A stretch of DNA of 64,000 nt from a virus: IMG/VR virus record IMGVR_UViG_3300021376_000010; one strand, given 5' to 3'. Of this stretch, positions 37,696 to 59,280 are shown one piece after another. The translations under genes and the position numbers were made by a program. Position 1 is the first letter of the stretch, and each line of letters starts with the position of its first letter. The notes below the pieces were generated by a model. That model was given only the letters and a program-made list of their open reading frames with translations, was not told where the DNA came from and ran no database searches.

Positions 37696-39582
37696 TTATC
37701 TAGTATATGCTCCGTTTGAATAACTTGAAGTTACAATATGTTCAGTTGCAGAAGTATTTTCTCCTGAACTAATTCTATCTTCAATCATATTAACTACAAG
37801 ATTATCAATGCTTAATTCTAAGTATATATCTTGCAATGCAATCACATCATTTGACTCTGGTATTGCTTGGACTTCAATACCATTTGGTTTCAAAGAACTA
37901 GTAATATTGACTGTATCTAAGTATACTTCACCTTTCTTATAATAAACAATACCTGCATTATTTTTAACAATAAATGGAAGATTGTCTTTCAATGTAAAGT
38001 AAAAAATGGTTCCACTTGTTTCATCAATTGGAACATCACTCATGTATACAGTTCCATCCACATCTTTAATTGTGAAACCAGAAGATTTTATATTATAACC
38101 TCTATTGTCTAAAGGATTATTTTTCTTAATATGAAAAGAATTACCAAAACAAAGTTCATAAGTAGCAAAGTTATTAAATGCTGGTTGCAAATCTCTTCTC
38201 ATTCTAACTTTTGTGATGTTAGATGTTATTGAAGAACTTATATCATCAATCAATGCATTTACTTTACTGTATTTAAATCTTCCACCAAAATTATTTAAGT
38301 CATACGATTTACCATAAGCAGTAAGAGTTTCAATAATTTTATTTCTAAGTACTGATGTATCTGCAACTGAACTCTTGTCATAATATACACTTGTATTGAG
38401 TTCTACATACAAATATTTCAAATCAACTAATTCTGGTTTTATTCCTGCAATCGAATATTGTTTTAACTGTTTCTTAATCTCTTCTTTTGATATTCTTGAT
38501 AAAAATTTTCCTTGTCTTGGTTTTACTGATATAAAAACTTTTCCATATTGTGGTGGATCTAATTCATCACCACCATAAGCAGTTACAGATTCAACATTAG
38601 GGAATATAAAAGGAATTAATCCTTTGTAATCATTTGCAGTAACTGCTCTATACTGAGATGAATAAACTCTTGGTGCAAGATATTTAATAGAGTCAATTTT
38701 TTCAATGTCGTCACCGTTCTCAGATGGTAACGTTGTAGTAAGTGGTGATATTCCCGATGTGATTCTATTTTGGTTATTATCTTCTAAAATTCCAGAGAAG
38801 TTGAAGTTAGCACATCCATTTCCTGCTTTTCCATTTGTAAGAATATAACTTACAAAAATAGAACTTCCAGATGCTGGTCTTTTACCAAATACATTGTCAC
38901 CAAACAATAATTCATATTTTTCATCTTCAACTTCTTGAACTAAAAATATTTTAGAATTAGCATCAACGTTTAAGATATTTGAGTATTGATTATATTCTTC
39001 ATTTGCTAAGTCAGTTACAAACACACGAATACTTGTAGTATCAACAGATGGATTTGGAATAACAAATTTTTGATCTGGTTGTGAACTATCTACGATAAAA
39101 CTCTTTGTTAAAAATGTTCCTTCACATAATTCAATATCTGTAAAGTATGCATACCCTGCTGCATCTACTGTTACAGTAATATCTTCTGGTATTGAAAACA
39201 CATAATTTCCACTTTCAATCGCACCTAAACCAATTGCTCCTGCTTTGAGTGTAACTGATTTTACATCTAAAAATCCAGAGGTATTTACAGAAAAACTAAC
39301 TCTTGCTTTTGATGCTCTTCTTGACCTTGGAACATATCCAATATTACGTGCCAAAGAAACAACATTCTCTCGTAAAGTCGCACTATCAAGAAACGACTCA
39401 TTCACCGTCATATTCGTATTGAATGACGTAATGTAAGAATTATATGCTAAGATATCAATCAATACAGAAAAGTTAGAACCCTCAAAGTCAAAATCTGTAA
39501 AATTACTATTTGCTCTTAGATAATCTTTGATTTGTGTTCTTAGATCCTGAAAATCTAAGTTTGTAAATTGATTGAATGACAT
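37696..39582 (-). CDS. gp6: Baseplate wedge subunit gp6
   Basis: LDFQDLRTQIK, FTDFDFEGS, ESFLDSATLRENVVSLARNIGY, RAVTANDY. Confidence 0.95.
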   Translation of the reverse strand: MSFNQFTNLDFQDLRTQIKDYLRANSNFTDFDFEGSNFSVLIDILAYNSYITSFNTNMTVNESFLDSATLRENVVSLARNIGYVPRSRRASKARVSFSVNTSGFLDVKSVTLKAGAIGLGAIESGNYVFSIPEDITVTVDAAGYAYFTDIELCEGTFLTKSFIVDSSQPDQKFVIPNPSVDTTSIRVFVTDLANEEYNQYSNILNVDANSKIFLVQEVEDEKYELLFGDNVFGKRPASGSSIFVSYILTNGKAGNGCANFNFSGILEDNNQNRITSGISPLTTTLPSENGDDIEKIDSIKYLAPRVYSSQYRAVTANDYKGLIPFIFPNVESVTAYGGDELDPPQYGKVFISVKPRQGKFLSRISKEEIKKQLKQYSIAGIKPELVDLKYLYVELNTSVYYDKSSVADTSVLRNKIIETLTAYGKSYDLNNFGGRFKYSKVNALIDDISSSITSNITKVRMRRDLQPAFNNFATYELCFGNSFHIKKNNPLDNRGYNIKSSGFTIKDVDGTVYMSDVPIDETSGTIFYFTLKDNLPFIVKNNAGIVYYKKGEVYLDTVNITSSLKPNGIEVQAIPESNDVIALQDIYLELSIDNLVVNMIEDRISSGENTSATEHIVTSSYSNGAYTR

Positions 39583-39983
39583 TATATTCTAGTTGGTAGT
39601 AAAAGAAACTCTATGTTTTGCTTGGGAAATCCTAGACCAACAATATCATATTCAACTTCAACATTTATTTGATTATCATCTGGTAGAGGTATTACTTTGA
39701 TATCTCTTAATACAATTCTTGGTTCAAAGTTTTTTAACACACTCATGACTTCTTCTCTCATGATGATTCCGATTTCTTCGTCAACCATCTCGAATAAATT
39801 TCTTGTTACGGAAGTTCCGAGTAAAGGGTTAAAATACCTCTCACCAAGAATTGTTCTAACCAAGTTTGTAACAGATTTCTTGATAGCATCCTCGTTTTTG
39901 ATGACTAAAATATCATTAGTTACAGGATGCTTAGCAAAAGATAAACTAATATCTTTAAATGCTCTAGAAATCCTTGTGGCCAT
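39582..39983 (-). CDS. gp25: Baseplate wedge subunit gp25
   Basis: FKDISLSF..HPVTND, AIKKSVTNLVRTILGER, FEPRI. Confidence 0.92.
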   Translation of the reverse strand: MATRISRAFKDISLSFAKHPVTNDILVIKNEDAIKKSVTNLVRTILGERYFNPLLGTSVTRNLFEMVDEEIGIIMREEVMSVLKNFEPRIVLRDIKVIPLPDDNQINVEVEYDIVGLGFPKQNIEFLLLPTRI

Positions 39984-40020
39984 TAAGATTAAAAGTGTAT
40001 TTAATATATCTATAACACTT

Positions 40021-40263
40021 TTAGATCACTTTTTTGCCATATGAAGGTTCTGTTCCATATTCCCAATCATCATAATCTTCATCATTTCTAATCTTTTCAT
40101 GCAATTCAGTTTGCTTCTTTAAATCATGCTTCATCATATCATCATGCATGATTTCTGAAATGACTCTTGGTTGCACTGATTCTTTGTAATCTGTAATCAA
40201 ATGTGTAGTGCCCCACATTTGATACATGTAGTTTTTGTCTCTATCAACTGGTAGGTTGGACAT
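40021..40263 (-). CDS. Hypothetical protein (80 aa)
   Basis: ORF with AGGAG RBS; MWGT..LITDY. Confidence 0.7.
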   Translation of the reverse strand: MSNLPVDRDKNYMYQMWGTTHLITDYKESVQPRVISEIMHDDMMKHDLKKQTELHEKIRNDEDYDDWEYGTEPSYGKKVI

Positions 40264-40332
40264 TTTAGCTCCTGTTTTTTAGTAAAAACAGAACTTTTTT
40301 TTGTAGGAGGTTGCTATCTCCCCTAACCCTAT

Positions 40333-40674
40333 TTAACGTAGCACATGCCTTAAAGTATAATTTTCTGAATTTAAATATTTCAACATCTCTAATGCGATTA
40401 ATTTTGGATTTCCTGGTCCACAAGTATAAACATCAACGGCAATACAACCTTCTTCTGGCCAAGTATGGCATGAAACATGACTTTCTGACAGTGCCATTAC
40501 GATTGTAACACCTTGAGGTACAAAACAATGCTGATAAATGTTAAGAATTGTCATTTCAGCACGTTTGACTCCACTTTCCATTGCCCCTTGAATGGAAATT
40601 CCATCGTTAAGTAAGTCAAACTTAACGTCATAGACCTCCAACAGGAGGTGATTTCCCATCGAAAATTTCTCCAA
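40333..40674 (-). CDS. speD: S-adenosylmethionine decarboxylase proenzyme (auxiliary metabolic gene)
   Basis: F.PQGVT..LSESHVSCHTWPE..AVDVYTCG signature. Alternative ATG start at 40659. Confidence 0.93.
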   Translation of the reverse strand: MEKFSMGNHLLLEVYDVKFDLLNDGISIQGAMESGVKRAEMTILNIYQHCFVPQGVTIVMALSESHVSCHTWPEEGCIAVDVYTCGPGNPKLIALEMLKYLNSENYTLRHVLR

Positions 40675-40705
40675 CTCGCATAAATCTCCAAAAATGGCAC
40701 AAATA

Positions 40706-41188
40706 CTATTTATTTCTAATATTTTGGACTACTTCGTAGTCATAGTCAAGGATTTTTTGCAAATATTCATCATCCCAAGCATCATAATAAGACGTTGTGG
40801 CAAGTTTTTTTCTTAATTTTGTCAAAAATTCCTTATCTTGATACAAAATTAAATTATATTTTTGATTATTTGTCTGTTTTTCACCAAGAAATGTTGGTTG
40901 AGATGCACAATCTTCAAAAAAAGTATATTTTGGATATTTTTTTGAGAGATTTTTACATTTTTCTTTAATAGAATCTAATTCTAGGTCGTCTTCAACAATA
41001 AAAATAACGACACCATACTCTTCAGAAAGAAGTTTGATGTCGTTAATTGGTGATTCTACAATTTTATAAGATTTTTGTCCGTAAATTTTAGCAAATGGAC
41101 ATAAAGAGAACCCGTTTAAGTCTGGATGATGAACTGAAACTCTTTCAATCCAGTCTAAAACGTGACTTTCTTTATTTTCCTTGTCCAC
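40706..41188 (-). CDS. Hypothetical protein, DUF1415-like N-terminus (probable GTG start)
   Basis: WIERV..LNGFSLCPFA motif. Confidence 0.55.
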   Translation of the reverse strand: MDKENKESHVLDWIERVSVHHPDLNGFSLCPFAKIYGQKSYKIVESPINDIKLLSEEYGVVIFIVEDDLELDSIKEKCKNLSKKYPKYTFFEDCASQPTFLGEKQTNNQKYNLILYQDKEFLTKLRKKLATTSYYDAWDDEYLQKILDYDYEVVQNIRNK

Positions 41189-41315
41189 GATACTTTTTCC
41201 TTGCCTTATTACGACTCGTTGCACTATATTTAGTATTACGTCCTGCACCCTGAAGAGTTAGTTTTGGTTTGCTTTCAACTTTAACTCCACCTTTCGCACT
41301 TTTCTTCACTGCCAT
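41172..41315 (-). CDS. Small basic protein (47 aa)
   Basis: MAVKKSAKGG..SRNKARKKYRGQGK with AGGAG RBS; below the ORF-track cutoff. Confidence 0.75.
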   Translation of the reverse strand: MAVKKSAKGGVKVESKPKLTLQGAGRNTKYSATSRNKARKKYRGQGK

Positions 41316-41466
41316 TGTAAAAATCTCCTAGTTGGTTTTCGTTTACGGTTTTTTAACGGGTTTTTTAAGAATTAAAAATGCCCTTAAAGGACTCCTAAAA
41401 ATCTTTCAAGGGCATTCTATCAAAAGTTTCTTAGAACGTCAAGAAGACACTCTCAGAAGGGGTACA

Positions 41467-42219
41467 TCAGATGATTCGAGTCTTCTCGTGACCAACACGA
41501 ATCTTTGGATCACACCAAATCTCAAATCCTGCTTCCTTCGCATCAAGACAGAAGGAAACATCCTCTCCACACATATCTTGAACTTCTCCAGATTCAAATT
41601 GTTGCATCTTAGGTGCAAACCAAGGATACTCAAGAGATTCAAAGACACCTTTCTTAATTAATACCCAACCAAATCCAGTATAATCAACTGTAAATGGTTT
41701 ACGACGATTCTGCATCGTCTCTCCAGTTTCATGATTCATCACTCCACCGTTAGTACGGAAGTCTTCTTCCTCTAACCAGTGTGCAACAGACGTGGTGTGA
41801 CCATCTTCAGTCATGTACCAACCTGCAGCAATATCTTTGTCCATTGCTACAAGACGATAGAACTTCTCAGTGTCAAACACAATGTCGTTATCAATCCAGA
41901 GTTGATAATCATATTCAAGTTTACCATCCCAAGGTTTCTGTCTGGGTCCTCTGAGAACATTTGCTCCAAGACACTTGCAACGTGCAAAGTTTACCATGGA
42001 ACTATAGTCCTGTGAAATCTGAATACTTGCTCCTGCCTGTACCAAATCAAAACACAATTGAACAAATGCTTTCAGAAAAATATATGAACAACCTCTACCT
42101 GGTAAACAAAAAACAATGGACTTTCCTTTTACCATTGCTCTTGCTTCTTCTAAATTAAATTCGTCAACAACTTTCTTAGTCGTCGGTGCGTTTGCTTTAA
42201 TCGTAAATCCTTTTGCCAT
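41467..42219 (-). CDS. Glycosyltransferase family 2-like protein (250 aa)
   Basis: LWIDNDI DxD motif, VDYTGFGWVLI, GEDVSFC, VGHEK. Confidence 0.8.
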   Translation of the reverse strand: MAKGFTIKANAPTTKKVVDEFNLEEARAMVKGKSIVFCLPGRGCSYIFLKAFVQLCFDLVQAGASIQISQDYSSMVNFARCKCLGANVLRGPRQKPWDGKLEYDYQLWIDNDIVFDTEKFYRLVAMDKDIAAGWYMTEDGHTTSVAHWLEEEDFRTNGGVMNHETGETMQNRRKPFTVDYTGFGWVLIKKGVFESLEYPWFAPKMQQFESGEVQDMCGEDVSFCLDAKEAGFEIWCDPKIRVGHEKTRII

Positions 42220-42242
42220 AAAAAAATAATTTCGACGTTAAC

Positions 42243-42271
42243 ATTATACCACTACAAATCAATCATTGCAA
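42243..42271 (-). promoter_or_regulatory. Sigma70-like promoter
   Basis: TTGCAA-17 bp-TATAAT with extended TG, upstream of the glycosyltransferase gene. Confidence 0.7.
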
Positions 42272-42430
42272 TGGGTCTTCCCTATTATTTAGAATCACTT
42301 TGATATCCTCATTATTTCCACCAGAAGTCCACACAAGTCCTCTGACCTGATTTAAAGTCACCTCTAAATCTTCTGGATTTACCTTTTCTACAATTGTAAC
42401 ACCATTTACTTCAATATTATACGTATTCAT
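42263..42430 (-). CDS. Hypothetical protein (55 aa)
   Basis: Manually translated MNTYNIEVNG..EDPLQ. Confidence 0.6.
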   Translation of the reverse strand: MNTYNIEVNGVTIVEKVNPEDLEVTLNQVRGLVWTSGGNNEDIKVILNNREDPLQ

Positions 42431-42569
42431 CAGAATCTTCTACCTTGAAGAGTAATTCTTCTAATTCTTCCCTGAGAATCTCATTTGAATTTGCTGTCTT
42501 GTCCGTTTCGAGTCGGAATTGTATGCATTCAATCAACAACTCTCTCTCATAGTCTGTAACTTCTAACAT
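42417..42569 (-). CDS. Hypothetical acidic protein (50 aa)
   Basis: Manually translated MLEVTDYERE..DEYV; AGGA RBS. Confidence 0.6.
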   Translation of the reverse strand: MLEVTDYERELLIECIQFRLETDKTANSNEILREELEELLFKVEDSDEYV

Positions 42570-42595
42570 ATCCTGTCATATTATTCTTTTTCCAT

Positions 42596-42772
42596 TTATA
42601 TATCAACCTTTTGAGATTTTTTTGCTGCCCGAAAATTTTTTCTAAGATTTTTCACCATAATTCTCATAAGTTCTCCGAGGGTCACTCCGATATACTCAAA
42701 CTCTTCCTTATGGGTGGTTTTCGTACTTAGAGAATTTTTTTTTCTCAAAGACAAATTCAATGGCACAATCAT
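42596..42772 (-). CDS. Hypothetical basic protein (58 aa)
   Basis: Manually translated MIVPLNL..KVDI; weak RBS. Confidence 0.35.
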   Translation of the reverse strand: MIVPLNLSLRKKNSLSTKTTHKEEFEYIGVTLGELMRIMVKNLRKNFRAAKKSQKVDI

Positions 42773-43145
42773 ACTTTTATAGATTAGGGTAGTTATGCGT
42801 TTTTATTTTTAGGGGGGCATCGGTTCTTAATACTTTATACCATCAATCGCAATATACTGTCTATAAGAATTAAACAACACTGTTTAATTATAATAAACGA
42901 ACAATAACGAATAATAATAAAACTATACTGGATATAAAGAATAATAAACTATTACGGGGGTATAAGTATACCGAATCGGGCAGATATAACGAATTAAGTA
43001 ACACTGAGGAATTAGAATAATAAACTATACCCCAGGTATCATAATACTCGAAGACGGCACAGTTGTCAACAGATAAGGACAAAACATAAGGCACTATACA
43101 ACACTGTGTGATTGTTATAAGAAACTGTATCCCAGGTATGATACC

Positions 43146-43209
43146 TGTGGAAAACTCTTATACTTTTTCCACAGGGTTGTGGAAAAAGTATTGTGGAAAC
43201 TGTGGAAAA
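43146..43209. promoter_or_regulatory. Cluster of five cyanobacterial-type DnaA boxes (TTTTCCACA)
   Basis: Perfect boxes at 43146-43154(-), 43165-43173(+), 43178-43186(-) and 43201-43209(-); one-mismatch box at 43192-43200(-). Confidence 0.75.
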
Positions 43210-43283
43210 CTTTATATCAACCCCTGTGCAATTCTTATAAGCATTAGGTGTTTATAACGAATTCCCTCTCCTCCCGCCCTATA

Positions 43284-43341
43284 AATCTAGCACGAACTGC
43301 ATAAGACTCATAAGACGAATGGACAGTTCTCAGAGTGTCCT
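43284..43341 (-). promoter_or_regulatory. Early promoter cassette pointing at the DnaA boxes
   Basis: Palindrome TGGACAG-N8-GTGTCCT at 43320-43341, 30 bp, then TGcTAGATT. Confidence 0.6.
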
Positions 43342-43498
43342 TGGACGAATGAAACGCATAAGTCTTTTGAGTCTCATGGACGAACAAATAAAAATCCTCC
43401 GAGTCTCATAAGACGTATGAGTTCTCAGAGTCTTATTAAGTATTATAATACACGAAACCCCTTGACATAACTGTAAAGTTGTGCTGGGGAATTATCGT

Positions 43499-43556
43499 GT
43501 GCCAGTTTTTGGAGTGTCTTATAGTGCTTGACTTTTCTGAGGTTTTATGATACAAT
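43499..43556 (+). promoter_or_regulatory. Early promoter cassette on the plus strand with no downstream ORF
   Basis: Palindrome variant at 43499-43520, 7 bp, TTGACT-17-TACAAT with extended TG; same geometry as the 52514-52571 promoter. Confidence 0.7.
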
Positions 43557-43650
43557 GCACGCTTAGACGGCAATAACTAGAAGGATTTAGAGAGTATAAG
43601 AACAGGGATTAGAGACCGATTAGAGAGGCATACAATAAGGAGAGAAAGGG

Positions 43651-43658
43651 TATTTATA
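43651..43658 (-). promoter_or_regulatory. T4-type late promoter consensus TATAAATA inside the non-coding region
   Basis: Exact match; could be chance in AT-rich DNA. Confidence 0.4.
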
Positions 43659-43808
43659 ACACTTTTCAACCTCTTATTCTAATCAACACAAAACACAAAC
43701 ATATGTTTTTTAATACATTTTTTTTAATTATCTCTTATTACACAATCACATAAAAAAAGATAATTATCTCTTATTCTTACTGATTCATCTCTTGTTTCTT
43801 GAATTGTA

Positions 43809-44105
43809 TTAGTAAGAAGCAGCTTCGAGTGTAATGTTTTCTTTTCTTGAGAGTTGATCGACTTGATAAGAGATTTCTTCATTCATACAATTATACACAG
43901 TCTCATAGATTACATCATAACAATCTAAATTAGAAAGAACTTCCTCTGCAAGTTCATCATTGTATGGATAAACAATTTCATTTGTAACTGGGTCATAATG
44001 CTCTAATTCTTTTACATCTTGTTTTGTATAAAGAAGAGAAAAGACCGTATCATTCGGATTCATCTTTTCCAGTTGATGAATAACGTCTTTGACTGTTTGT
44101 TTCAT
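43809..44105 (-). CDS. Acidic hypothetical protein (98 aa), paralog-like to 57083-57349
   Basis: ORF track; translational coupling. Confidence 0.75.
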   Translation of the reverse strand: MKQTVKDVIHQLEKMNPNDTVFSLLYTKQDVKELEHYDPVTNEIVYPYNDELAEEVLSNLDCYDVIYETVYNCMNEEISYQVDQLSRKENITLEAASY

Positions 44106-44296
44106 TTGTTTAGGGCAATCAGTTCTTGATGAATAGTAAGTACATCATATTCATCATCTACTTCGTTTAGATCAACAGGTGCAAATTCAGAAAGATTTAC
44201 AGTGTTGTCTGCGTAGATAGGAGCATAATACAACTCTTGAGAATCAGTGTCAAGAGTGAAAATGCAACCGTAATCTTCTTTGCGAATGAGAATCAT
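44102..44296 (-). CDS. Hypothetical protein (64 aa)
   Basis: ORF track; ATGA overlap. Confidence 0.7.
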   Translation of the reverse strand: MILIRKEDYGCIFTLDTDSQELYYAPIYADNTVNLSEFAPVDLNEVDDEYDVLTIHQELIALNK

Positions 44297-44624
44297 TTGA
44301 AGGAATTAAGAATAATCAGAAGTTCGTTACCGTCGATTGCTCTAGACAGCAATTCGATTTTAGTTTTCTTTTTCATCAGTTGGACATTACTTTGTTGAAC
44401 AGAGAATCATAAGCATCTTCATTCATCCAATCAGGAATGTCTCCATCAATGAATTGAAGAACAGATTGAAGAACTTCTAATTCTTCAGGAGTGAATCGGA
44501 AAATCATTTCTTCCATTTGATTTCTTGTGCTTTGAAATACTTGTATTCTCGAATAAAAACTTTAATTGCCCAGATTGCAGTTGCAGTCTTACCAATTAAA
44601 AGTATCCAACCAACTGTTACCATT

Positions 44625-44786
44625 TTAGTTACTCACTTGACGTTGATTCAATCGAGCAGGAGATCCACAAGAACGGTAAAACTCTACCATTCTTTCTGCT
44701 TCCTCAAGAGTGTTAAAATATTGACTTCTCCACTCACAATCATTGTAAGGAATTTGATAAGAAACTTCAAACATTTGTTTAGACAT
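44625..44786 (-). CDS. Hypothetical protein (53 aa), tandem paralog B
   Basis: MSKQMFEVSYQIPYNDCEWRSQYFNTLEEAE..VEFY. Confidence 0.75.
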   Translation of the reverse strand: MSKQMFEVSYQIPYNDCEWRSQYFNTLEEAERMVEFYRSCGSPARLNQRQVSN

Positions 44787-44934
44787 TTTGAGTGTTGATA
44801 ACTTGAGCAGGAAAACCAATAAAAGAATTATAAAACTCTACGGCATCTTCTGCTTCTTGAAGTGTATCATAGAATCGAGTTCTCCACTCATTTGTATATG
44901 GAACTTGAAAAGAGATTTGATACATTTCAGGCAT
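44779..44934 (-). CDS. Hypothetical protein (51 aa), tandem paralog A
   Basis: Manually translated MPEMYQISFQVPYTNEWRTRFYDTLQEAEDAVEFY.. Confidence 0.75.
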   Translation of the reverse strand: MPEMYQISFQVPYTNEWRTRFYDTLQEAEDAVEFYNSFIGFPAQVINTQNV

Positions 44935-45124
44935 TGATCAGAGTTTGCAGTTGATTGAAATCTTTACATTGTGCTGCTTGAATTGCTTTGGTGATGGAAT
45001 AAGTCACAAAACCACAACGTTCAGTCTTGGTTTCACACACAGCATAAACAGGTTGTTTCGTCTGAATGTCGAAAACAGTCTTAATCAGCATTGGTTGTTT
45101 GTTTATGTGGGACAGATGAAAGAT

Positions 45125-45298
45125 TTAGATGCGAGCAAGAGCATCTTTCTTTTGCTTCGGATTGGAAACTTTCTTCACCCAAGAAGATTTACGATGCGAT
45201 TGAATCTGCGAAGGAAGTTTTTGCTTACCCTGAACTTCATCAATCAGTTGAATGAAATGAATGAAGAATTGCTTTTCCATCCGTTGTGCAGCAGTCAT
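45125..45298 (-). CDS. Basic hypothetical protein (57 aa)
   Basis: Manually translated MTAAQRMEKQ..LARI; first gene after the 45361 promoter. Confidence 0.65.
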   Translation of the reverse strand: MTAAQRMEKQFFIHFIQLIDEVQGKQKLPSQIQSHRKSSWVKKVSNPKQKKDALARI

Positions 45299-45360
45299 CT
45301 TGATTCAAATAAAGAATTAGACTTAGGTGGGACAGTGCGACCTGCTCCCTCCACCCTCTT

Positions 45361-45417
45361 AATATAGCACCTTTTGGGGTCTGTGCTCTTTTAGTGTGCC
45401 ACTAGAACAAGTGGCAC
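45361..45417 (-). promoter_or_regulatory. Early promoter cassette
   Basis: GTGCCACTAGAACAAGTGGCAC (45396-45417), 29 bp, TGcTATATT. Confidence 0.8.
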
Positions 45418-45458
45418 ATCGCATAGTTGGACTCACATGAGTTGATGCTACCTTTGAA

Positions 45459-45713
45459 TCAAAGGTGAGAGAGAACTTTCATCATTGCAGAAACTTCTGC
45501 TTTTGTATTCCAACCCATTACATCTTCTGTCATATTACCATTCGGTCGGAAGATTGCAACCTCATAAGTATTCTCATTGATATTACCATACAAACCACAG
45601 TTCGGAGGACCAGCAACAACAGAAATACTCCAATCATTCTCAAACTTATGTCGTGCAGCAATCGCACCAGAAATACCATTCAGATGCGGTTGAAATTGAA
45701 GAAGGTCAAACAT
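45459..45713 (-). CDS. Hypothetical phage protein
   Basis: FENDWSISVV..GLYG..TYEVAIF motif seen in many phage early proteins. Confidence 0.7.
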   Translation of the reverse strand: MFDLLQFQPHLNGISGAIAARHKFENDWSISVVAGPPNCGLYGNINENTYEVAIFRPNGNMTEDVMGWNTKAEVSAMMKVLSHL

Positions 45714-45717
45714 TGTA

Positions 45718-46050
45718 TCAAACAAGTTGTTGGGACAGTGCATACTTAACAATCTCAGTGCGATTGTCTTTATATTGAATCAGCAAATCAATAATTGGTT
45801 TGTAATCATTTGGGTCTTGAATTTCTGGGTCACACTCATCATCGGCAAGTGCAGTAAAAATAGTTGCAATTTCAAAGTCCGACTCAAACAAATGCTCCCG
45901 ATGCTCGTCAATTAGTAGATAATCTTCAATAGCATTAGAACTCAGTTTCAGTGGAATGTCAGGACCAATCAAACCAAGAGTTGCAAGTCGTTCCAATGCA
46001 CCAACAACCCACATTACTTTACACTCACCAACAGACATTTGTGCGTTCAT
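45718..46050 (-). CDS. Hypothetical protein
   Basis: ORF track, start adjusted to ATG. Confidence 0.7.
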   Translation of the reverse strand: MNAQMSVGECKVMWVVGALERLATLGLIGPDIPLKLSSNAIEDYLLIDEHREHLFESDFEIATIFTALADDECDPEIQDPNDYKPIIDLLIQYKDNRTEIVKYALSQQLV

Positions 46051-46091
46051 TGTATCAAGAATCAAAGGGGAAAAAAGAAAGGGTGTTTAAC

Positions 46092-46766
46092 TCACACCCC
46101 ACAGAGTTGTTTAGTCACAGAACCAGATGCTTGACGGTTCAAAGAAACACCAGCACCAACATTGGAACCAGCATAAGCACCAGCACCGTTAGCACCATTC
46201 ATCTTCTTTGCACGTCCAAATCGCATCGTGGAGAGTTTGCTCTTCACTGCATCAGCATCATCATGCACTCGACCTTCTGCTTCTTTCATTTCACGCAGAC
46301 GTTCTGCAACCTTATCAGCAAATGCTTTACGGAAGTTCAATTTGAAACTGCGGGAAACAGTTTTACCAGTCAAATCTGCCATAACTTTTTCTGCTTTATG
46401 TGCAACATCTGCCTCTTTCTCCATCACCTGCACCAGGTAATCATAATAGAGACGCACTTGGATTTGTTGTGCTTCACTACCAATCACTTGCAGAGACTTA
46501 GTATCACCATTCTTCAGGTATGCCATTGCATCATAGAACTTTGCAATCGCATTAGCAATCGTAGTCAGAGCAACATTAGTTTTCTTGAAAGAGATAAAAG
46601 ACTCATCAAGAACTTGAGTTTCAGTTGCTTCAGAGATTGTTACACCATACTGCTTGCACAGTTTATCAATCATCTTAGCAGCAGCATCTGCTTCACCCTC
46701 AAAAGAAGTTCCATTCTGAAGTTTCAGGATGGATTGAATCTTTGCGATGACTTGCTGACGTTCCAT
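46092..46766 (-). CDS. DUF2786-domain protein (224 aa)
   Basis: N-terminal KIQSILKL..EGEADAAAKMIDKLCKQYG; C-terminal FRKAFA..V.ERL. Confidence 0.7.
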   Translation of the reverse strand: MERQQVIAKIQSILKLQNGTSFEGEADAAAKMIDKLCKQYGVTISEATETQVLDESFISFKKTNVALTTIANAIAKFYDAMAYLKNGDTKSLQVIGSEAQQIQVRLYYDYLVQVMEKEADVAHKAEKVMADLTGKTVSRSFKLNFRKAFADKVAERLREMKEAEGRVHDDADAVKSKLSTMRFGRAKKMNGANGAGAYAGSNVGAGVSLNRQASGSVTKQLCGV

Positions 46767-46815
46767 AATCAAATAAAGAATGGGACTCGGGTGGGACTGC
46801 TCCCTCCACCCTCTT

Positions 46816-46872
46816 AATCTACCAGAAAAAAGTTCCAGTGCTCTTTTAGTGTGCCACTAGAACAAGTGGCAC
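46816..46872 (-). promoter_or_regulatory. Early promoter cassette
   Basis: GTGCCACTAGAACAAGTGGCAC (46851-46872), 29 bp, TGgTAGATT. Confidence 0.8.
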
Positions 46873-47030
46873 GTCTCAACACTGGACTCACCGAGTTGTG
46901 CTGATAATGTCAGCAACAGTGTAAAGAGTATTTGCAGTTAGGTTTCTCACACTAGGAGAGAAAATAAATGCAACTGCAAAGATGAGAATTATAGTTTTCA
47001 TCTTATTTGGTGCCTTAAATGTTAATGTCT

Positions 47031-47252
47031 TCACTTATCAATCAGTTCGGTACGACCCTCATCCATCAAATCACCGAAAGCATACATCACATCTTTCTCA
47101 ATGCGAGCAAGATTATCTAAAGTCCAGTTATCCCAAATCTCATCATCACCATCATACAACTCTTCAATCCAATAGTGAAAGCAATTCACATCCCAGTTAT
47201 ACAGATTATTGAGTGCTTCACAGATAGCATCAGACAGTTCTGCTTGAGTCAT
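47031..47252 (-). CDS. Acidic hypothetical protein (73 aa)
   Basis: ORF track. Confidence 0.7.
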   Translation of the reverse strand: MTQAELSDAICEALNNLYNWDVNCFHYWIEELYDGDDEIWDNWTLDNLARIEKDVMYAFGDLMDEGRTELIDK

Positions 47253-47280
47253 TGTTTTACTTTAGTTGTGATGGAAAAAA

Positions 47281-47469
47281 TCAGGCACAGATGGAATAGA
47301 GTTTATCAAACTCGTATTCACCATCTTCACCCTCAACTGCCTGATAAACAATCACAGTTTCACCAGACAGTTCAACACTCCAATCAAGAGCATCTTCTTT
47401 GGCATTATCTACATCTTGATACCACTCAGCATCAATCAGGTCAAAAGAGACAGGGCAAGAAAGAAACAT
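47281..47469 (-). CDS. Acidic hypothetical protein (62 aa)
   Basis: ORF track, start adjusted to MFLSCP. Confidence 0.65.
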   Translation of the reverse strand: MFLSCPVSFDLIDAEWYQDVDNAKEDALDWSVELSGETVIVYQAVEGEDGEYEFDKLYSICA

Positions 47470-47563
47470 CGGAGTCAAAAACAAATGAATTAGTTTGATG
47501 GTGCAAGTGTGATACACCTCATCAGGATGTAACAGGGACTTGCACTCTATCGTTTCTATTTAA

Positions 47564-47767
47564 TCAGACTGCGGCAAGATAAGCAGCAATCTCATCATCA
47601 TTCTCGGGACAATCAGCAATTCCCAGGTCTTCACAAACTTGCTCACGAGTGAGTTCAGTTTGCTCAGGAACCAGAACATTCAGAATGTCAAGAATCTGAG
47701 TTCCAGTCTGCCCCTTGCGAAGCATACCGAGCATCACATCAGCAGAAAAAGTAGCAACAGCAGTCAT
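47564..47767 (-). CDS. Hypothetical protein (67 aa)
   Basis: ORF track; first gene after the 47880 promoter. Confidence 0.7.
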   Translation of the reverse strand: MTAVATFSADVMLGMLRKGQTGTQILDILNVLVPEQTELTREQVCEDLGIADCPENDDEIAAYLAAV

Positions 47768-47879
47768 TTTGATTAAGATAGAGTTTGAGTTGAAGTGATG
47801 AGGTTAGATAACAGCATACTTGCCAAGATGCCATTTGACGTTATCGAGGTGGTCTTATTGCCTCCCTCACCACCCCTAT

Positions 47880-47936
47880 ACAATACCACATTTTGGACCC
47901 CGTGCTCATTTACTGTGCCACTAGAACAAGTGGCAC
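47880..47936 (-). promoter_or_regulatory. Early promoter cassette
   Basis: GTGCCACTAGAACAAGTGGCAC (47915-47936), 29 bp, TGgTATTGT. Confidence 0.75.
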
Positions 47937-48201
47937 ATCGCATAGTTGGACTCGGTGAGAATGGATTTTGCTCGGAAGCACCAACCCCCTGAGTCCTATG
48001 CGGGACACATAATGAGACCGAGAAGAGTTTTTGTTTCTTCTCTGATTCTACCTGCAACCTAGGCACCCCTCCCCGCAGGATGCAGTCCCATTGCAGTCTC
48101 GTGTGAAACTGTTGATTTGGGATTTTTCCGCAATCTGGGGTTCAGGTGCCCTAGGTCATTGGCAGCAGTCTCATCGACGGTCTATCTGAAACTGTTGAGA
48201 A

Positions 48202-48387
48202 TCAGGCAGATTCCAGCAGTTCGGGATTGTATTCCTCAACTTCAGTGAGAAGTTCCTCATCAGTGTAGGCAGAAAGATTCTCTTTCAGAGAACTATAAAC
48301 AAAACACTCCATTGTTTTATAATCCATATTCTCAATGAGTGTTTGGATGTAGTCTTCAGTGAGTTGTGCGCGGTTAAAATCAGACAT
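48202..48387 (-). CDS. Acidic hypothetical protein (61 aa)
   Basis: ORF track. Confidence 0.7.
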   Translation of the reverse strand: MSDFNRAQLTEDYIQTLIENMDYKTMECFVYSSLKENLSAYTDEELLTEVEEYNPELLESA

Positions 48388-48388
48388 T

Positions 48389-48595
48389 TCAGTAGGATTC
48401 AGAAATTACAAGGTAATCAAGTGAATTGACACACCAACCAGTTTGGTCGGAAATCAAATCAGCAAGTTCATCTTCATTATCAACTTCAAAGACTTCACCA
48501 ATCACAGATTTAGCAACTGCAACCTGCTCATCATAGGGAAGTTCATCTTCCCCATCATAAAAGTCAAACTCAATGTCAGTTAGTTTCAGAAGCAT
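48389..48595 (-). CDS. Acidic hypothetical protein (68 aa)
   Basis: TDIEFDF..LADLISDQTGWCV motif. Confidence 0.75.
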   Translation of the reverse strand: MLLKLTDIEFDFYDGEDELPYDEQVAVAKSVIGEVFEVDNEDELADLISDQTGWCVNSLDYLVISESY

Positions 48596-48846
48596 TAGAC
48601 TGCACCATGGAAAGGATTGGCAAGTTGTGGAATCGTATTAAAATCTATAACTTCATAAGGAACATTATGATTGAGATACTCATTGATTTCTCTGTTCATC
48701 TCAACTTTATTGAGAAACTTCTTGGATTGACTTTGACCCATAAAGGTCAATACTTTCAAAAACCAAGTTTTAGAAACATCACCAAAAGGTGTTTTGATGG
48801 GGTAGAAATCTACCACCATATTACCATCGTTAGATTGAAGTTTCAT
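48595..48846 (-). CDS. Hypothetical protein (83 aa)
   Basis: ORF track; coupled start/stop. Confidence 0.7.
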   Translation of the reverse strand: MKLQSNDGNMVVDFYPIKTPFGDVSKTWFLKVLTFMGQSQSKKFLNKVEMNREINEYLNHNVPYEVIDFNTIPQLANPFHGAV

Positions 48847-48994
48847 CAGAAATCGTATTCGTAGGAGTTTGCAATTTCAATTGACTGAAGGATGTGTTCA
48901 TAATCCTTCTTTTCTTCCTCATTGAACTCGTATGCTTGTTGTTCCAAGCAATAGAGAATCAATTCAACTGCCTTGTCTTGAAGATAAAGTCGCA

Positions 48995-49390
48995 TCAGAA
49001 TTGAGTGTCGAACACAAAACCACCTTCATAAACGCAATCGAGATTCTCGAAACTTGCTTCCCAATCAATCTCCAGAAAACCAGGCATGTCCGTAGTATAA
49101 CAGTCATTCACAAAGTTTTCTACATATTCACCTTTAGAACTCCAAGCACCACGGTAGGAATCTTGGAAACCAGGAAGTTGGTCGAGACCATAATACTCAA
49201 CAAAAGCATCTACTGCTTCATAAGAATAATCCTCACCAAGTTCACAGTAATCTTCGTAGAACTTTACGAGGTTATCTTCACCGTGCTCACCGATGAACTC
49301 ATAAATGTCTTCGTCGGAATAGTTATTCTCAACAAGTTCTTTGATGAACTCAACAGTCGATTCTTTGAGATTCACTTCGATTGCAGGCAT
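48995..49390 (-). CDS. ArdA-like antirestriction (DNA-mimic) protein (131 aa)
   Basis: Very acidic; FQDSYRGAWSS..YVENFV..MPGFLEIDWEA resembles the ArdA C-terminal domain. Confidence 0.6.
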   Translation of the reverse strand: MPAIEVNLKESTVEFIKELVENNYSDEDIYEFIGEHGEDNLVKFYEDYCELGEDYSYEAVDAFVEYYGLDQLPGFQDSYRGAWSSKGEYVENFVNDCYTTDMPGFLEIDWEASFENLDCVYEGGFVFDTQF

Positions 49391-49418
49391 TGGGTCTCTC
49401 AACCTCGATTACTTTGTA

Positions 49419-49477
49419 ATGATAGCACCCTCAGCAGGGGTTTGGAGAGTGTAGTGTGCCACCTCTACAAGTGGCAC
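49419..49477 (-). promoter_or_regulatory. Early promoter cassette
   Basis: GTGCCACCTCTACAAGTGGCAC (49456-49477), 31 bp, TGcTATCAT. Confidence 0.8.
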
Positions 49478-49656
49478 AGTCTCACTCAAGACTCACTCAT
49501 CATACCAGTATTCATAATCTCTGATAATGTCATCTGGATGATTATACTTATCAGTCATACGGTCAATAAAGTCTTGAACTTCACCATCATCCAAATCGGC
49601 ATTAAAATAAATCGTGAGATTCACAGATTTATATTGAGTCACGGTCGTTTGTTCCA

Positions 49657-50049
49657 TTAAAATTGTTGTTCGATTAAATTAGAAAGTTCATTGAAAGTGT
49701 AACCCGAATCGTTTAGGTTGGCAATCTCATCGTGATAAAACCAATCATCCTCATCATTATCAGTTACATCCACTCGGACATTTGGATTGCCATGTGATAA
49801 TCCTGCCCAATCCCTAACTGAATCAGGAGTGAACTCACTTTGGTCATCAAAATACCAATAGTCCTGAGATTGAAGATTAGTTTCTGCAATACCCCTGAAC
49901 TCCCATTTAACATCGTGTTCTTGTGAATACAAATCGCACAGAACACCAAGGCAGCAATAACCACTCACACTGCGGAGTTTCTCACTGCCTTGCTCGTATT
50001 TACCAGAACGCAGAGCATCAATCCACTTTTGCTTAACTTCAGGATTCAT
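49657..50049 (-). CDS. Conserved phage hypothetical protein (130 aa)
   Basis: KWIDALRSGKYEQG..CCLGVLCD..LND.G.TF.E motif. Confidence 0.8.
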   Translation of the reverse strand: MNPEVKQKWIDALRSGKYEQGSEKLRSVSGYCCLGVLCDLYSQEHDVKWEFRGIAETNLQSQDYWYFDDQSEFTPDSVRDWAGLSHGNPNVRVDVTDNDEDDWFYHDEIANLNDSGYTFNELSNLIEQQF

Positions 50050-50232
50050 TTTAGTTTTCAACATCATTTACGTCCTCAAACCAAGTGTCGAGTGAATTAA
50101 AGATTTCAGTTACGATGCTATCAGTAATAGCATCAATGTGTGGATTCTCTACATGCTTAAAAGCACGATTGTATCCAAACCTTACACCTTCTTCGATTGC
50201 CATTTCAAGAACAGCACGGAATCTAGGTTTCA

Positions 50233-50439
50233 TCATAATACCTCCCAATCACATTCCCAAAAGTCATTGACATTTACCCAGAAGAAATATTTTTTATTCT
50301 CTGATGCGAGAAACAACATACCATCACCCTTGTCTTGCTCTACAATGCAAGTTGGGTTGTTATCCATTACATTGCAAAGTCTATTCTTTGCTTTCTTGGA
50401 TTTAGGTCTAACAATTACTTTGCGTGGATGCGACATCAA
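50233..50439 (-). CDS. Hypothetical protein (68 aa)
   Basis: V.PKSKKAKNR..FLAS.N.KYFFWV. Confidence 0.7.
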   Translation of the reverse strand: MMSHPRKVIVRPKSKKAKNRLCNVMDNNPTCIVEQDKGDGMLFLASENKKYFFWVNVNDFWECDWEVL

Positions 50440-50642
50440 TTTACAGCAAGGACAAGATTGGCAACTCGGTTCTCAGGAACAAACTCTTGCAACCTGTCAT
50501 AAACCTTTTGGAATTGAACTCCCAGATTCATGTAATAAGCAGCAAGATTGTGGTCTTCTGCAAGATACAGAGAATCTTCTTTCTCTTCAAGTGCAGAGAT
50601 AATGTCCAGCAACTCACCAGATGTAAAAGAGATTGAAGTCAT
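50436..50642 (-). CDS. Hypothetical protein (68 aa)
   Basis: ORF track; ATGA overlap. Confidence 0.7.
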   Translation of the reverse strand: MTSISFTSGELLDIISALEEKEDSLYLAEDHNLAAYYMNLGVQFQKVYDRLQEFVPENRVANLVLAVN

Positions 50643-50839
50643 TTGATGTCAAAGATGTCGAACAGTTCTCGTTGAGTTTTGGTGAACAAAGTATCTTCAG
50701 GAGGATACTCATAGAGTTCCAACTCAAACTCTTTGTAGAAATACATAATGTCCCGAAGAGCAGTCAGTTGCTTCTCAGTCAGGATTTCTTCAATCGTCAG
50801 CACAGTTTCAAGCATAGTTTCAGTAATCAGTTCCGTCAT
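50639..50839 (-). CDS. Acidic hypothetical protein (66 aa)
   Basis: ORF track, start adjusted. Confidence 0.65.
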   Translation of the reverse strand: MTELITETMLETVLTIEEILTEKQLTALRDIMYFYKEFELELYEYPPEDTLFTKTQRELFDIFDIK

Positions 50840-51007
50840 TTTCACATTCTTGAATCCAATAAGCATAGCACGGAAAGTTCAGAGGATGGTCTACATTCCG
50901 TTTATACCAATCAAATGCAAGTCGCACTCGATTCTCTGGCACCTGCAAATAAGGAATGTTTGTCAGATGCGGGGTGTAAGTCATTGGACTTCCTCAATCA
51001 TGAATCC

Positions 51008-51066
51008 ATAATACCCCAGAATCCCAGGCACCGCAACCGCATCTGTGCCACCCCTACAAGTGGCAC
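51008..51066 (-). promoter_or_regulatory. Early promoter cassette
   Basis: GTGCCACCCCTACAAGTGGCAC (51045-51066), 31 bp, TATTAT. Confidence 0.75.
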
Positions 51067-51073
51067 ACCAGGG

Positions 51074-51892
51074 TCAGTAAATCGCAATTAGTTCTTTAAC
51101 TTTTCCTCTTGATTCATTGCTCGCACCTACACTGCGAGTAACATCAACTTCAATAATCTTTCTTGCATCACAATAGAGTTCTCTTGCCCTCTCTACATCA
51201 TGATTGCTGATAATTACTTTTGCTCCTTGACTTTTTAGATACTTTGCAAGTTCAACTAATCGGATTTGGTCTGAATCAGTAAATCCCTCGGTGTGATAAT
51301 CTGTAAAATTAGATGTTTCACTCAATGGAATGTAAGGTGGGTCAAAATAAACAACAGTTTTATCATTGATGTTTTGATACAACTTCATTTCAGAGAAATC
51401 AAGAGAGTGCATGTATAGTTGATTCTTCTCTCTCATTGTGTTGGTGAAGTTAATCATCTCAATCCTTGGGAAAGTCACACTCTTATACTTTCCGAAAGGA
51501 ACATTATACTTACCTTGTTTGTTGTATCGAGTCAATCCATTGAAACTGTGTTTGTTCAGATAGACAAACAATGCAGACTTCTCTCTTTTGTCTGTAGTTT
51601 CATTGAACAGTTCTCGATTTCTATAGAAAACTACTTCATCATTTCCTTCAATGAAGTATGACTCACAATAATCAACAAAGTCTTTTCCTTCAGAAATTAA
51701 ATGTTGATAAATCTGAATCAAATCACTATTTGCATCATTGATAACAATGACTGGGCAATCTACAATGTTCAGTGATACACTTGCTGCACCACTGAACGGT
51801 TCAATAAATTGAGTTGGATACCCAATAATAGGAATAAGTTGGGGCAGCAGTCTAAACTTACCACCTGCCCACTTTAGAAAAGGTTTATTCAT
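51074..51892 (-). CDS. dam: Dam-like DNA adenine methyltransferase (D12 class)
   Basis: FLKWAGGK, FIEPFSG, IND.N, FNGLTRYN..G.YNVPFG, YFDPPY, IISNH. Confidence 0.93.
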   Translation of the reverse strand: MNKPFLKWAGGKFRLLPQLIPIIGYPTQFIEPFSGAASVSLNIVDCPVIVINDANSDLIQIYQHLISEGKDFVDYCESYFIEGNDEVVFYRNRELFNETTDKREKSALFVYLNKHSFNGLTRYNKQGKYNVPFGKYKSVTFPRIEMINFTNTMREKNQLYMHSLDFSEMKLYQNINDKTVVYFDPPYIPLSETSNFTDYHTEGFTDSDQIRLVELAKYLKSQGAKVIISNHDVERARELYCDARKIIEVDVTRSVGASNESRGKVKELIAIY

Positions 51893-51898
51893 TAAAAA

Positions 51899-52492
51899 TC
51901 ATACGATAGTTTTACCGAACTGAGTGCAAAGATAAAATGCCATGTTTTTATCTTTCAGTTGCTTACCATTATAGCACAGAGGCACATAATAACCTTGCTT
52001 AGTTTTAGATGCTTTTGTGCGAATCTGAAGGAGTTTGTTAGGACCAGTAATCGTAGTCAGTTCCTTACCATTGGCATAACGATTGCGAATTTCATTACAA
52101 ATGTATTCATAATCTTCTGCAAGATGAACAAAATGAGTGGGGCAACTATCAAAGTTCATAACAGCAGTTCCAATGTAATCATTAGAACGTGTGAAACCAA
52201 CGTAGATAGTTTGAGCAAGTTTTTGTCCTACCTTGCTATCATAAAAACCCACTTGCTCATCAATAATTTCTTCAAGACAATGCTTAATTTGAGTTATAGC
52301 AATGCTCTCACCTTGAGTAAAAGTTTTGAGTTCACCATCAATCAAATCAGTCAGGGCAGAACTATTAAGAATACCCAGAGCATTTTCAATCAGTTGACCA
52401 CGGGCACCCTTATTCTTGCCAGGTTTATCAAATGCTGTGAAGTCAGTAACTTTCAGTTTAGCAGCAACTTGATTTGTGGACAGTTTGGGCAT
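51899..52492 (-). CDS. MutH/Sau3AI-family PD-(D/E)xK endonuclease (197 aa)
   Basis: NKGARGQLIE..LG, D....ELKT catalytic motif, LQIRTKA and AFYL match MutH/Sau3AI blocks. ATG at 52492 lies downstream of a promoter. Confidence 0.75.
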   Translation of the reverse strand: MPKLSTNQVAAKLKVTDFTAFDKPGKNKGARGQLIENALGILNSSALTDLIDGELKTFTQGESIAITQIKHCLEEIIDEQVGFYDSKVGQKLAQTIYVGFTRSNDYIGTAVMNFDSCPTHFVHLAEDYEYICNEIRNRYANGKELTTITGPNKLLQIRTKASKTKQGYYVPLCYNGKQLKDKNMAFYLCTQFGKTIV

Positions 52493-52513
52493 GTGTTCTT
52501 TGTGTGTGAATAC

Positions 52514-52571
52514 ACTGTAACCGATACAGGTGCAGAAGTCAAGGGGTTTGTGCCACAAGTTCAACTGGCAC
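52514..52571 (-). promoter_or_regulatory. Early promoter cassette driving the nuclease-dam operon
   Basis: GTGCCAG-N8-GTGGCAC, 7 bp, TTGACT-17-TACAGT. Confidence 0.8.
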
Positions 52572-52586
52572 ATGGACTCACAAGAC

Positions 52587-52751
52587 TCAACTGAGATTGT
52601 TTATGTATTTCTTCAGTAGATGTTTTCCCTTATCAACATCAAATCTATGTTCAAAGAGTTCCATAAGTTCCAACACTAGGTCAGCATATACAACTGGAAC
52701 TCTGATATGTTTAGTTTCACCTGATTTAGGAAACTTTTTACTAAATGGCAT
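52587..52751 (-). CDS. Small hypothetical protein (54 aa), possibly ribbon-helix-helix-like
   Basis: Manually translated MPFSKKFPKSGETKHIRVPVVYADLVLELM.. Confidence 0.55.
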   Translation of the reverse strand: MPFSKKFPKSGETKHIRVPVVYADLVLELMELFEHRFDVDKGKHLLKKYINNLS

Positions 52752-52783
52752 TACAATCTATGCGTGACACATAGAGATTTATA

Positions 52784-53080
52784 CTACTTCTTATCTCTCT
52801 TATCTTTAATTCCGTATTCATGCTTGATTTCTTGTCTAATATCATTTCTCAATTTATCAACGTGCTTCACATACTCTTTATGCTCTTCTTCTTCACGTTT
52901 TTGCTCTGACTCATGTTCTTTTCTTTCTTGCTCTTGCTCTCTTTGCTTCATAAATCTTTTCTTTCTGTTTTCAATGTCATCAAACTGTCTTTGTCTTGCT
53001 GCTGCAACTTTTGCAGCATAGACCTTTCTGTATGATTTTGCTTCTTCTAATTGTTGAAGAAATTGAGCAAAGGTTTTCAT
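52784..53080 (-). CDS. Charged coiled-coil hypothetical protein (98 aa)
   Basis: MKTF.QF N-terminus typical of T4-like late small proteins; CTAAATA late-like box upstream. Confidence 0.7.
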   Translation of the reverse strand: MKTFAQFLQQLEEAKSYRKVYAAKVAAARQRQFDDIENRKKRFMKQREQEQERKEHESEQKREEEEHKEYVKHVDKLRNDIRQEIKHEYGIKDKRDKK

Positions 53081-53107
53081 TGAAAAAGAAAGAAAATCTA
53101 AGGGTAT

Positions 53108-54343: not shown

Positions 54344-54373
54344 CAATAGGTCAGGTCACGTTTGTATTCATAC

Positions 54374-54430
54374 AGTATAGCACCCTCCCGTGGAATCGGG
54401 AAGGATGCTGGACGGTCTCACAAGTGGAAC
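54374..54430 (-). promoter_or_regulatory. Early promoter cassette
   Basis: Palindrome variant at 54409-54430, 29 bp, TGcTATACT. Confidence 0.7.
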
Positions 54431-54436
54431 AAAAGG

Positions 54437-55802: not shown

Positions 55803-55828
55803 ATGGTCTCCTTTGCTTGTGTCCCTGT

Positions 55829-56117: not shown

Positions 56118-56150
56118 CTGTCAATTAAACAACTTCTTTAATTTATACAA

Positions 56151-59276: not shown

Positions 59277-59280
59277 ATAA

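Follow-up and report, generated by a model that had tools for sequence, protein, structure and literature searches.

Host-type DnaA boxes beside a candidate replication-start cassette in a freshwater T4-like cyanophage

In both the ocean and lakes, T4-like cyanophages rank among the most abundant viruses. To our knowledge, neither the site nor the mode of their replication start has been mapped and, as far as we know, they reportedly do without the MotA/AsiA system on which the origins of T4 depend. The question of where such a virus begins to copy itself is raised anew by a stretch of 64,000 nucleotides (IMG/VR record IMGVR_UViG_3300021376_000010; hereafter the window), in which a preliminary description had pointed to a cluster of host-type DnaA boxes and proposed either an oriC-like origin opened by borrowed DnaA or a multicopy sponge for that protein. 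Does the cluster mark a replication start, and what would host DnaA do there?

The box array and its setting

We assign the window to a divergent freshwater T4-like cyanophage. The T4-like affiliation was confirmed by the baseplate genes gp6 and gp25 (Table 1), the top GenBank relatives are Kyanoviridae (for example, S-SRM01 and Sf-FS3) at only ~69% nucleotide identity, and the public runs holding the stretch are lake-water metagenomes. Giant ORFs further along the window have, with size as the sole basis for the comparison, the length usual for structural proteins of such phages. ARAGORN called one tRNA-Ile (gat) at 28545-28633, within an 876-aa ORF (27182-29812) on the same strand, which makes it a false call or an overlap.

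The boxes lie in a gap of ~1.04 kb (42773-43808) that contains short ORFs only and is, as initially described, non-coding; no other stretch of the window without an ORF of at least 50 aa is as long. The short ORFs are unlikely to be genes because relatives carry indels in this region whose lengths are not divisible by three. Every gene around the gap is on the minus strand. To its left are a 58-aa ORF (42596-42772), a conserved 250-aa protein (phrog_1574, ‘p250’) and the baseplate genes; to its right follow small early-type ORFs, a Dam methylase, a UvsW-like SF2 helicase and a metallophosphoesterase. Pfam and PHROGs assigned no function to the small flanking ORFs, an Rfam search of 40000-47000 returned no credible family, and blastn of the gap against GenBank phages gave no match at E 1e-5; at relaxed thresholds, the box core alone matched. 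Immediately upstream of the 58-aa ORF lies a strongly conserved non-coding block (TTTATAGATTAGGGTAGT ... GGGGGGCATCGGTT; window 42776-42825, L121 13630-13660, L122 ~14430-14480), and even S-SRM01 and P-SSM2, which have no box cluster, contain a similar one. Separately, we noted a GATC desert in the early region: 44936-62570 has 0 GATC in 17.6 kb compared to 61.5 expected from base composition, encloses the D12-class Dam methylase gene (51074-51892) and is likewise poor in GTAC (4), while GATC density in the structural region is normal.

Table 1 Features of the gap and the neighboring baseplate genes (window coordinates).
Feature	Position	Strand	Remarks
gp6	37696-39582	minus	T4-type baseplate wedge protein
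gp25	39582-39983	minus	T4-type baseplate wedge protein
Four iteron-like direct-repeat units (AACACTGT..ATTAGAATAA..AAACTATACCCCAGGTAT)	42867..43241	(+)	unit cores invariant in four-way alignment A1
AT-rich tract	42887..42947	.	~90-150 nt downstream of P(-); 7th least stable 60-mer
P(-), predicted sigma-70-type promoter	43041..43069	(-)	TTGACA, 17 nt, TATTAT; 11/12 matches
Palindrome CAGGTAT-G-ATACCTG	43133..43147	.	end of direct-repeat unit plus flank of box A
DnaA box A	43146..43154	(-)	perfect TTTTCCACA; unchanged in A1
DnaA box B	43165..43173	(+)	perfect TTTTCCACA; left half of head-to-head pair B-N4-C
DnaA box C	43178..43186	(-)	perfect TTTTCCACA; right half of head-to-head pair B-N4-C
DnaA box D	43192..43200	(-)	one mismatch, GTTTCCACA; present in L002 and L102, absent in L087
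DnaA box E	43201..43209	(-)	perfect TTTTCCACA; contiguous with box D
TATAAAT, T4-late-promoter-like	43281..43287	(+)	within block conserved in A1; likeness judged from the motif
CATAAGAC / GAGTCTCAT direct and inverted repeats	43294..43440	.	fold better than shuffles, z = -3.2
P(+), predicted sigma-70-type promoter	43528..43556	(+)	TTGACT, 17 nt, TACAAT with TG
Putative short non-coding P(+) transcript	43563..43702	(+)	no ORF; repeated GATTAGAGA motifs
Decayed second box pair (TTTTCAACC ...)	43663..43682	.	intact in L102: TTTTCCACA-N4-TGTGGAAAA
Conserved AT-rich element ATGTTTTTTAATACATTTTTTTTAATTA	43703..43730	(+)	candidate unwinding element or meeting point of converging transcripts

A pattern search recovered the cluster as it had been reported, with four perfect copies of TTTTCCACA and one single-mismatch copy, in both orientations, within 43146-43209. 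The expectation that the cluster would be unique also held, these four being the only perfect copies in the 64 kb. Shuffled sequences contain 1.7 perfect copies, scattered, so that four within 64 bp represent clustering far beyond chance; single-mismatch copies elsewhere in the window are at chance level (34 observed, 39 expected). The identification of the motif was likewise correct, as the 9-mer is identical to the DnaA box consensus documented for cyanobacteria (PMC4674748). The palindrome reported beside the boxes exists and overlaps box A by 2 nt, but it is not kept in the relative L087 and is, therefore, probably incidental.

Conservation at the syntenic gap had been named beforehand as a point on which the proposal could fail, and there the boxes are kept. 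In the three closest relatives (loci L002, L087 and L102), the box flanks are 71-81% identical, with the perfect boxes unchanged. Of the 36 box columns in four-way alignment A1, 35 are invariant, compared to 53% of neighboring non-box columns (P ~1e-10), and the sole variable box column is an artefact of a gap placed by the aligner in a run of A. The sequence of the 4-nt spacer of the B-C pair varies freely (GGGT, GCCC or ACCC). We conclude from this column-by-column comparison that selection acts on the boxes.

Similar arrays are found well beyond these relatives. Scanning IMG/VR for TTTTCCACA-N2-10-TGTGGAAAA yielded at least 120 loci, many with three to six perfect boxes within 150 bp. Among the 120 listed contigs, all found via the box pair, gp6/gp25/p250 are present in 51, always on the same side of the boxes. 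The cyanophage isolate DSL-LC03 has eight of its ten genomic boxes in one gap beyond gp6/gp25, arrays occupy the same gap in isolates DSL-LC02 and ACG-2014d, and S-PM2 has three boxes in 34 bp, located in its early small-gene region; no box cluster was found in the genomes of S-SRM01 and P-SSM2. The S-PM2 RefSeq record (NC_006820.1, L123) has tRNA-Asn and tRNA-Leu annotated over the array (19177-19333) and several further tRNAs over nearby coding sequences; ARAGORN found no tRNA in 2000-4600 of L123, and the annotated tRNA coordinates look misplaced. Metagenome contigs also speak for conservation of the boxes: several match the box core only and then continue into unrelated sequence, and depth over the core rises ~25-fold in one run. 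The gap and boxes are also spanned by contigs of a ~90%-identical relative from two metatranscriptome runs; contigs of this kind are silent on transcription, strand and ends, and carry-over of DNA is possible. Of 108 fetched viral contigs with tandem TGTGGAAAA-N2-4-TGTGGAAAA arrays (L253-L360, G+C 0.29-0.68), 73 are not T4-like cyanophages, high-G+C ones among them, and DnaA-box arrays may thus be a frequent feature of viruses or virus-like elements across many hosts.

Relatives use the 9-mer as single, tandem (N2-4) or inverted copies at varied spacing, consistent with a protein that, like DnaA, binds as a monomer. None of four complete box-bearing cyanophage genomes encodes a DnaA-type DNA-binding domain. 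We thus regard the array as a set of putative high-affinity docking sites for host DnaA. It is highly improbable, in our view, that the 9-mers instead serve another phage or host protein whose site happens to coincide with the DnaA box, or that they are functionless captured host DNA. DnaA binding is deduced from the motif, which leaves room for another binder, and one candidate sits at the gap edge: ORF 42596-42772 appears to be the counterpart of a 58-aa S-SRM01 protein annotated as DNA-binding, a correspondence based on position and the conserved upstream block. However, S-SRM01 has this ORF yet no boxes, the varied orientation and spacing speak against a dimer that reads a palindrome, and nine nucleotides identical to the host DnaA consensus are perfectly conserved.

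Capture from a host can be judged from the chromosomes themselves. Of 401 genomes sampled from the cyanobacterial phylum, 2 contain a perfect head-to-head pair. Many small genomes of this sample are non-photosynthetic, psbA being missing in four of five checked, so picocyanobacterial hosts are represented by few genomes. The one studied in detail, a psbA-bearing cyanobacterial genome of 2.4 Mb (G127), contains eight perfect boxes in total, none of them clustered, and no perfect box upstream of dnaN. In bacteria at large, head-to-head pairs are widespread, the matches listed coming largely from unrelated groups such as Streptococcus, Clostridia and Acidobacteria. Given the rarity of the pair in the sampled phylum and the phage-specific flanks of the array, recent capture of a host oriC is unlikely.

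A promoter and AT-rich cassette with optional boxes

The array shares the gap with several further elements (Table 1). It is located between the third and fourth of the direct-repeat units, which start at 42867, 42991, 43091 and 43215. P(-) is directed to the left, toward ORF 42772-42596 and the baseplate module, and its -35 block AGTTGTCAACA is invariant in four relatives (A1). P(+) points against all neighboring genes; the promoter and its first transcribed bases are kept in L002 and L102, and its family is found beside box arrays in ~30 loci. The AT-rich flanks noted in the preliminary description are real, 43707-43767 and 42887-42947 being the third and seventh least stable of all 60-bp duplex windows in the 64 kb. 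The element ATGTTTTTTAATACATTTTTTTTAATTA, present once in the window, is the least stable part of the gap and lies ~80 nt beyond the stop of the last early gene upstream, a place where transcripts would converge.

The putative P(+) transcript matches no Rfam family. It is 62% purine, the 99.7th percentile for the + strand; this richness fits transcription of that strand and is not specific to R-loops. A reading as structured RNA was considered and dropped, as no significant fold was obtained (z = -0.69). Purine-rich motifs (GATTAGAGA, AGAAGGATTTAAAGGG and AGACATTAA) recur in 43563-43702 and in related loci (for example, L374, L367 and L057); they vary between lineages, yet they are always repeated. 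A further class of repeats, of the CATAAG type represented here by CATAAGAC / GAGTCTCAT, also accompanies arrays in the divergent loci L069, L097, L126 and L033, and S-SRM01 carries CTCGTCGAGAT repeats at the equivalent place. Judged by their recurrence, these repeats may be a second set of protein sites.

For a view of the cassette that is blind to boxes, we anchored a census on an 18-mer of the AT-rich element. The 18-mer occurs exactly, and always in the same orientation, in at least 119 viral contigs, from which 77 distinct sites were sampled. Perfect boxes are present between -700 and +400 nt in 44 of these 77 sites, compared to ~0.03 expected. In 25 sites, a box lies within 45 nt of the AT-rich element at fixed offsets, namely +20 and +32 for tandem boxes and -40 and -27 for the head-to-head pair, and there are almost none beyond +60, in the flanking genes. 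The other 33 sites have no perfect box, a few of them being chance 18-mer matches in coding DNA. A P(+)-type promoter stands 110-200 nt ahead of the AT-rich element with or without boxes, and S-SRM01 has kept promoter, transcript and AT-rich element without any box. Relative to P(+), the boxes are ~320 nt upstream in the window, 18-46 nt upstream in some lineages and inside the transcript in others.

Read together, these alignments define a conserved core that consists of a backward sigma-70-type promoter, a short unstructured predicted transcript and an AT-rich element. To this core, DnaA boxes are often added, but they are optional and, as the comparison of lineages indicates, are gained, moved and lost. 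Because S-SRM01 and P-SSM2 have no cluster and 33 of 77 cassettes no perfect box, DnaA cannot be the obligatory opener in this phage group.

What host DnaA might do at the cassette

We consider the cassette the best candidate for the replication start of this virus. Our favored reading, to which we give a probability of about 0.4, is that host DnaA is recruited to a promoter-plus-unwinding cassette resembling T4 oriF and helps or gates initiation there. A sigma-70-type promoter directed against the neighboring genes would produce a short, unstructured, purine-rich transcript of ~50-230 nt, which would invade the easily melted AT-rich stretch downstream and prime replication through an R-loop, as in origins of the oriF/oriG type. 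In the window, P(-) would fire the opposite way into the second AT-rich tract, with the array between the two promoters. DnaA bound alongside would either help to melt the AT-rich DNA or stall RNA polymerase there, and either effect would make the first replication round of the phage depend on the state of the host initiator.

For a role as an origin we count the identity and uniqueness of the motif, the conservation of the boxes, their monomer-type spacing and the lack of a phage DnaA domain, together with the shared gp6/gp25 position, the link between boxes and cassette, the promoter spacing, the instability of the AT-rich DNA and the parallel to oriF. The pairing of promoter and downstream unwinding element that marks T4-type origins is present in the sequence, with the AT-rich element 145-205 nt past P(+). 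Against an origin stand the dispensability of the boxes, the lack of DnaA-trios and a box-promoter position that varies by lineage and is looser than known origin architecture. In the window, moreover, the box pair beside the AT-rich element is decayed and the surviving array is 500 nt off. GC skew, suggested earlier as a check for an origin, shows no inflection at the gap; this result is uninformative since the genes all run in one direction and later replication proceeds by recombination. As for an iteron-type origin, there are four repeat units and no Rep-like family among the neighboring ORFs scanned.

The same arrangement can be read in terms of transcription. DnaA is an established transcription factor, and its complex with boxes can block RNA polymerase, as at E. 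coli dnaA, mioC and asnC. Array-bound DnaA might regulate the two divergent early promoters between which the array lies, both of them conserved and of sigma-70 type, in which case the module would be a boundary between early and baseplate transcription and not an origin. In a roadblock variant, boxes beside the AT-rich element would halt both the P(+) transcript and the incoming early operon, and the location of that element just past the last upstream early gene suits this, as do the lineages with boxes close upstream of the P(+) -35 or inside the transcript. In the window, however, the boxes are 77-145 nt upstream of the P(-) -35 and far upstream of P(+), distances that are long for classical regulation; four to nine perfect sites exceed the number usual at regulated promoters; and no phage gene lies downstream of P(+) to benefit. 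Overall, we judge transcription control or a roadblock to be somewhat unlikely.

A further possibility, which we hold to be unlikely, is that the array acts on DnaA itself, either as a decoy of the datA kind that stops host initiation as phage copies rise or as a DARS-like site that alters the nucleotide state of DnaA. The location would then be explained by the gap being the main gene-free stretch of the region. The conserved sites are all perfect consensus, with no graded weak ones, and box number, order and position turn over fast among relatives, which suits titration more than a fixed machine. With only eight scattered perfect boxes in the 2.4-Mb G127 genome, a hundred phage copies would outnumber the host sites. 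A single infecting genome, on the other hand, cannot titrate DnaA, and a pure sponge has no need of the fixed offsets between boxes and AT-rich element seen in many loci. T4-like phages already have other ways of stopping host replication and break down host DNA.

The DARS variant draws on geometry. The E. coli K-12 DARS1 core, read directly, is TTATCCACT-N5-TGTGGATAA-N3-TGTGTATTA, that is, -> N5 <- N3 <-; the window has -> N4 <- N5 <-(1 mismatch) N0 <- and S-PM2 -> N4 <- N3 <-, so the boxes follow one another in the order and orientation of the DARS1 core, at spacings close to it. In addition, the head-to-head spacer is confined to 3-6 nt when 2-10 are allowed, with a mode of 4 in 39 of 65 distinct T4-like sites. 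Against this, a third tandem box accompanies only 16 of the 65 head-to-head sites, and other T4-like arrays are purely tandem. Nucleotide recharging may also matter less in cyanobacteria, because DnaA of S. elongatus unwinds its origin with ADP as with ATP (PMC8287927). That the array is a viral counterpart of DARS, in which head-to-head contact of DnaA molecules changes their nucleotide state or availability, we regard, by analogy with DARS1, as quite improbable. If true, it would mean that a lytic virus actively reprogrammes the host initiator, beyond merely binding it, with the outcome that its own origin cassette is fired or host initiation is derailed.

Recruitment of DnaA as a helper or gate at the cassette remains our preferred reading. 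A conserved promoter/AT-rich cassette with perfect host DnaA sites in many lineages provides a concrete, testable candidate, and it suggests that infection is coupled to the replication or cell-cycle state of the host. In picocyanobacteria, cell-cycle state follows the day-night cycle. The same layout exists in the laboratory phage S-PM2, which makes experiments feasible. A full-text literature search, with subscription journals largely outside its coverage, found no paper linking cyanophages with DnaA boxes. The present analysis contributes a box-blind census around the AT-rich element, the observation of fixed box offsets and of a narrow length range for the head-to-head spacer, a comparison with DARS1, and the observation that the head-to-head pair is rare among the sampled genomes of the cyanobacterial phylum.

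Comparison with known systems

The description of the array as oriC-like was not borne out. With cyanobacterial oriC it shares the identical 9-mer, AT-rich DNA nearby and a short G+C-rich 4-mer after a box, which in the phages is the B-C spacer. The unwinding module of S. elongatus consists of two tandem TTTTCCACA, GCCC and CTA repeats, the DnaA-trios (PMC8287927 supplement). The phage array, in contrast, is without them: no trio repeat (CTA on the box strand, at most 16 nt from the box) follows any box in the window, relaxed and weak matches occur in 2 of 57 related loci, and an inverted box occupies the trio position. Neither dnaA nor dnaN is adjacent, and the head-to-head pair is the arrangement that so few of the 401 sampled genomes contain.

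Like DARS1, DARS2 and datA, the array is a cluster of DnaA boxes that is not a chromosomal origin, and the window and S-PM2 repeat the order and orientation of the DARS core, with boxes I and II head-to-head and box III in tandem. Unlike in DARS1, the phage head-to-head spacer measures 4 nt instead of 5, and in the window the third box comes at N5 with one mismatch. The element, moreover, is on a lytic phage and not on a chromosome, the likeness being one of sequence alone. We know of no IHF or Fis partner sites in cyanobacteria.

DnaA-assisted origins include P1 oriR and those of F and pSC101, and DnaA stimulates transcriptional activation of lambda ori. These systems resemble the gap in combining DnaA boxes with iteron-like repeats and AT-rich DNA, and in all of them DnaA is a helper and not the sole initiator, the part that we would assign to it here. 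They differ in having an iteron-binding Rep or O-type initiator, of which none is evident beside the phage gap; the phage, moreover, is lytic and T4-like and has a replisome of its own.

A further parallel is offered by oriF (ori uvsY) and oriG of T4. Both are origins, whereas the cassette is a candidate read from its sequence; they use MotA-dependent middle promoters and no host DnaA, while the promoter here is of the sigma-70 type, non-coding and accompanied by DnaA boxes. In the T4 record, oriF is a promoter with a transcript that primes replication, located between gene 25 and uvsY/uvsW. The synteny is loose, since the orientation of gene 25 to the gap is reversed and ~25 small ORFs intervene. 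Even so, the gap lies between gp25 and a UvsW-like helicase, and the cassette shares with oriF and oriG a T4-like genome and a promoter followed, 110-200 nt downstream, by an easily melted AT-rich stretch.
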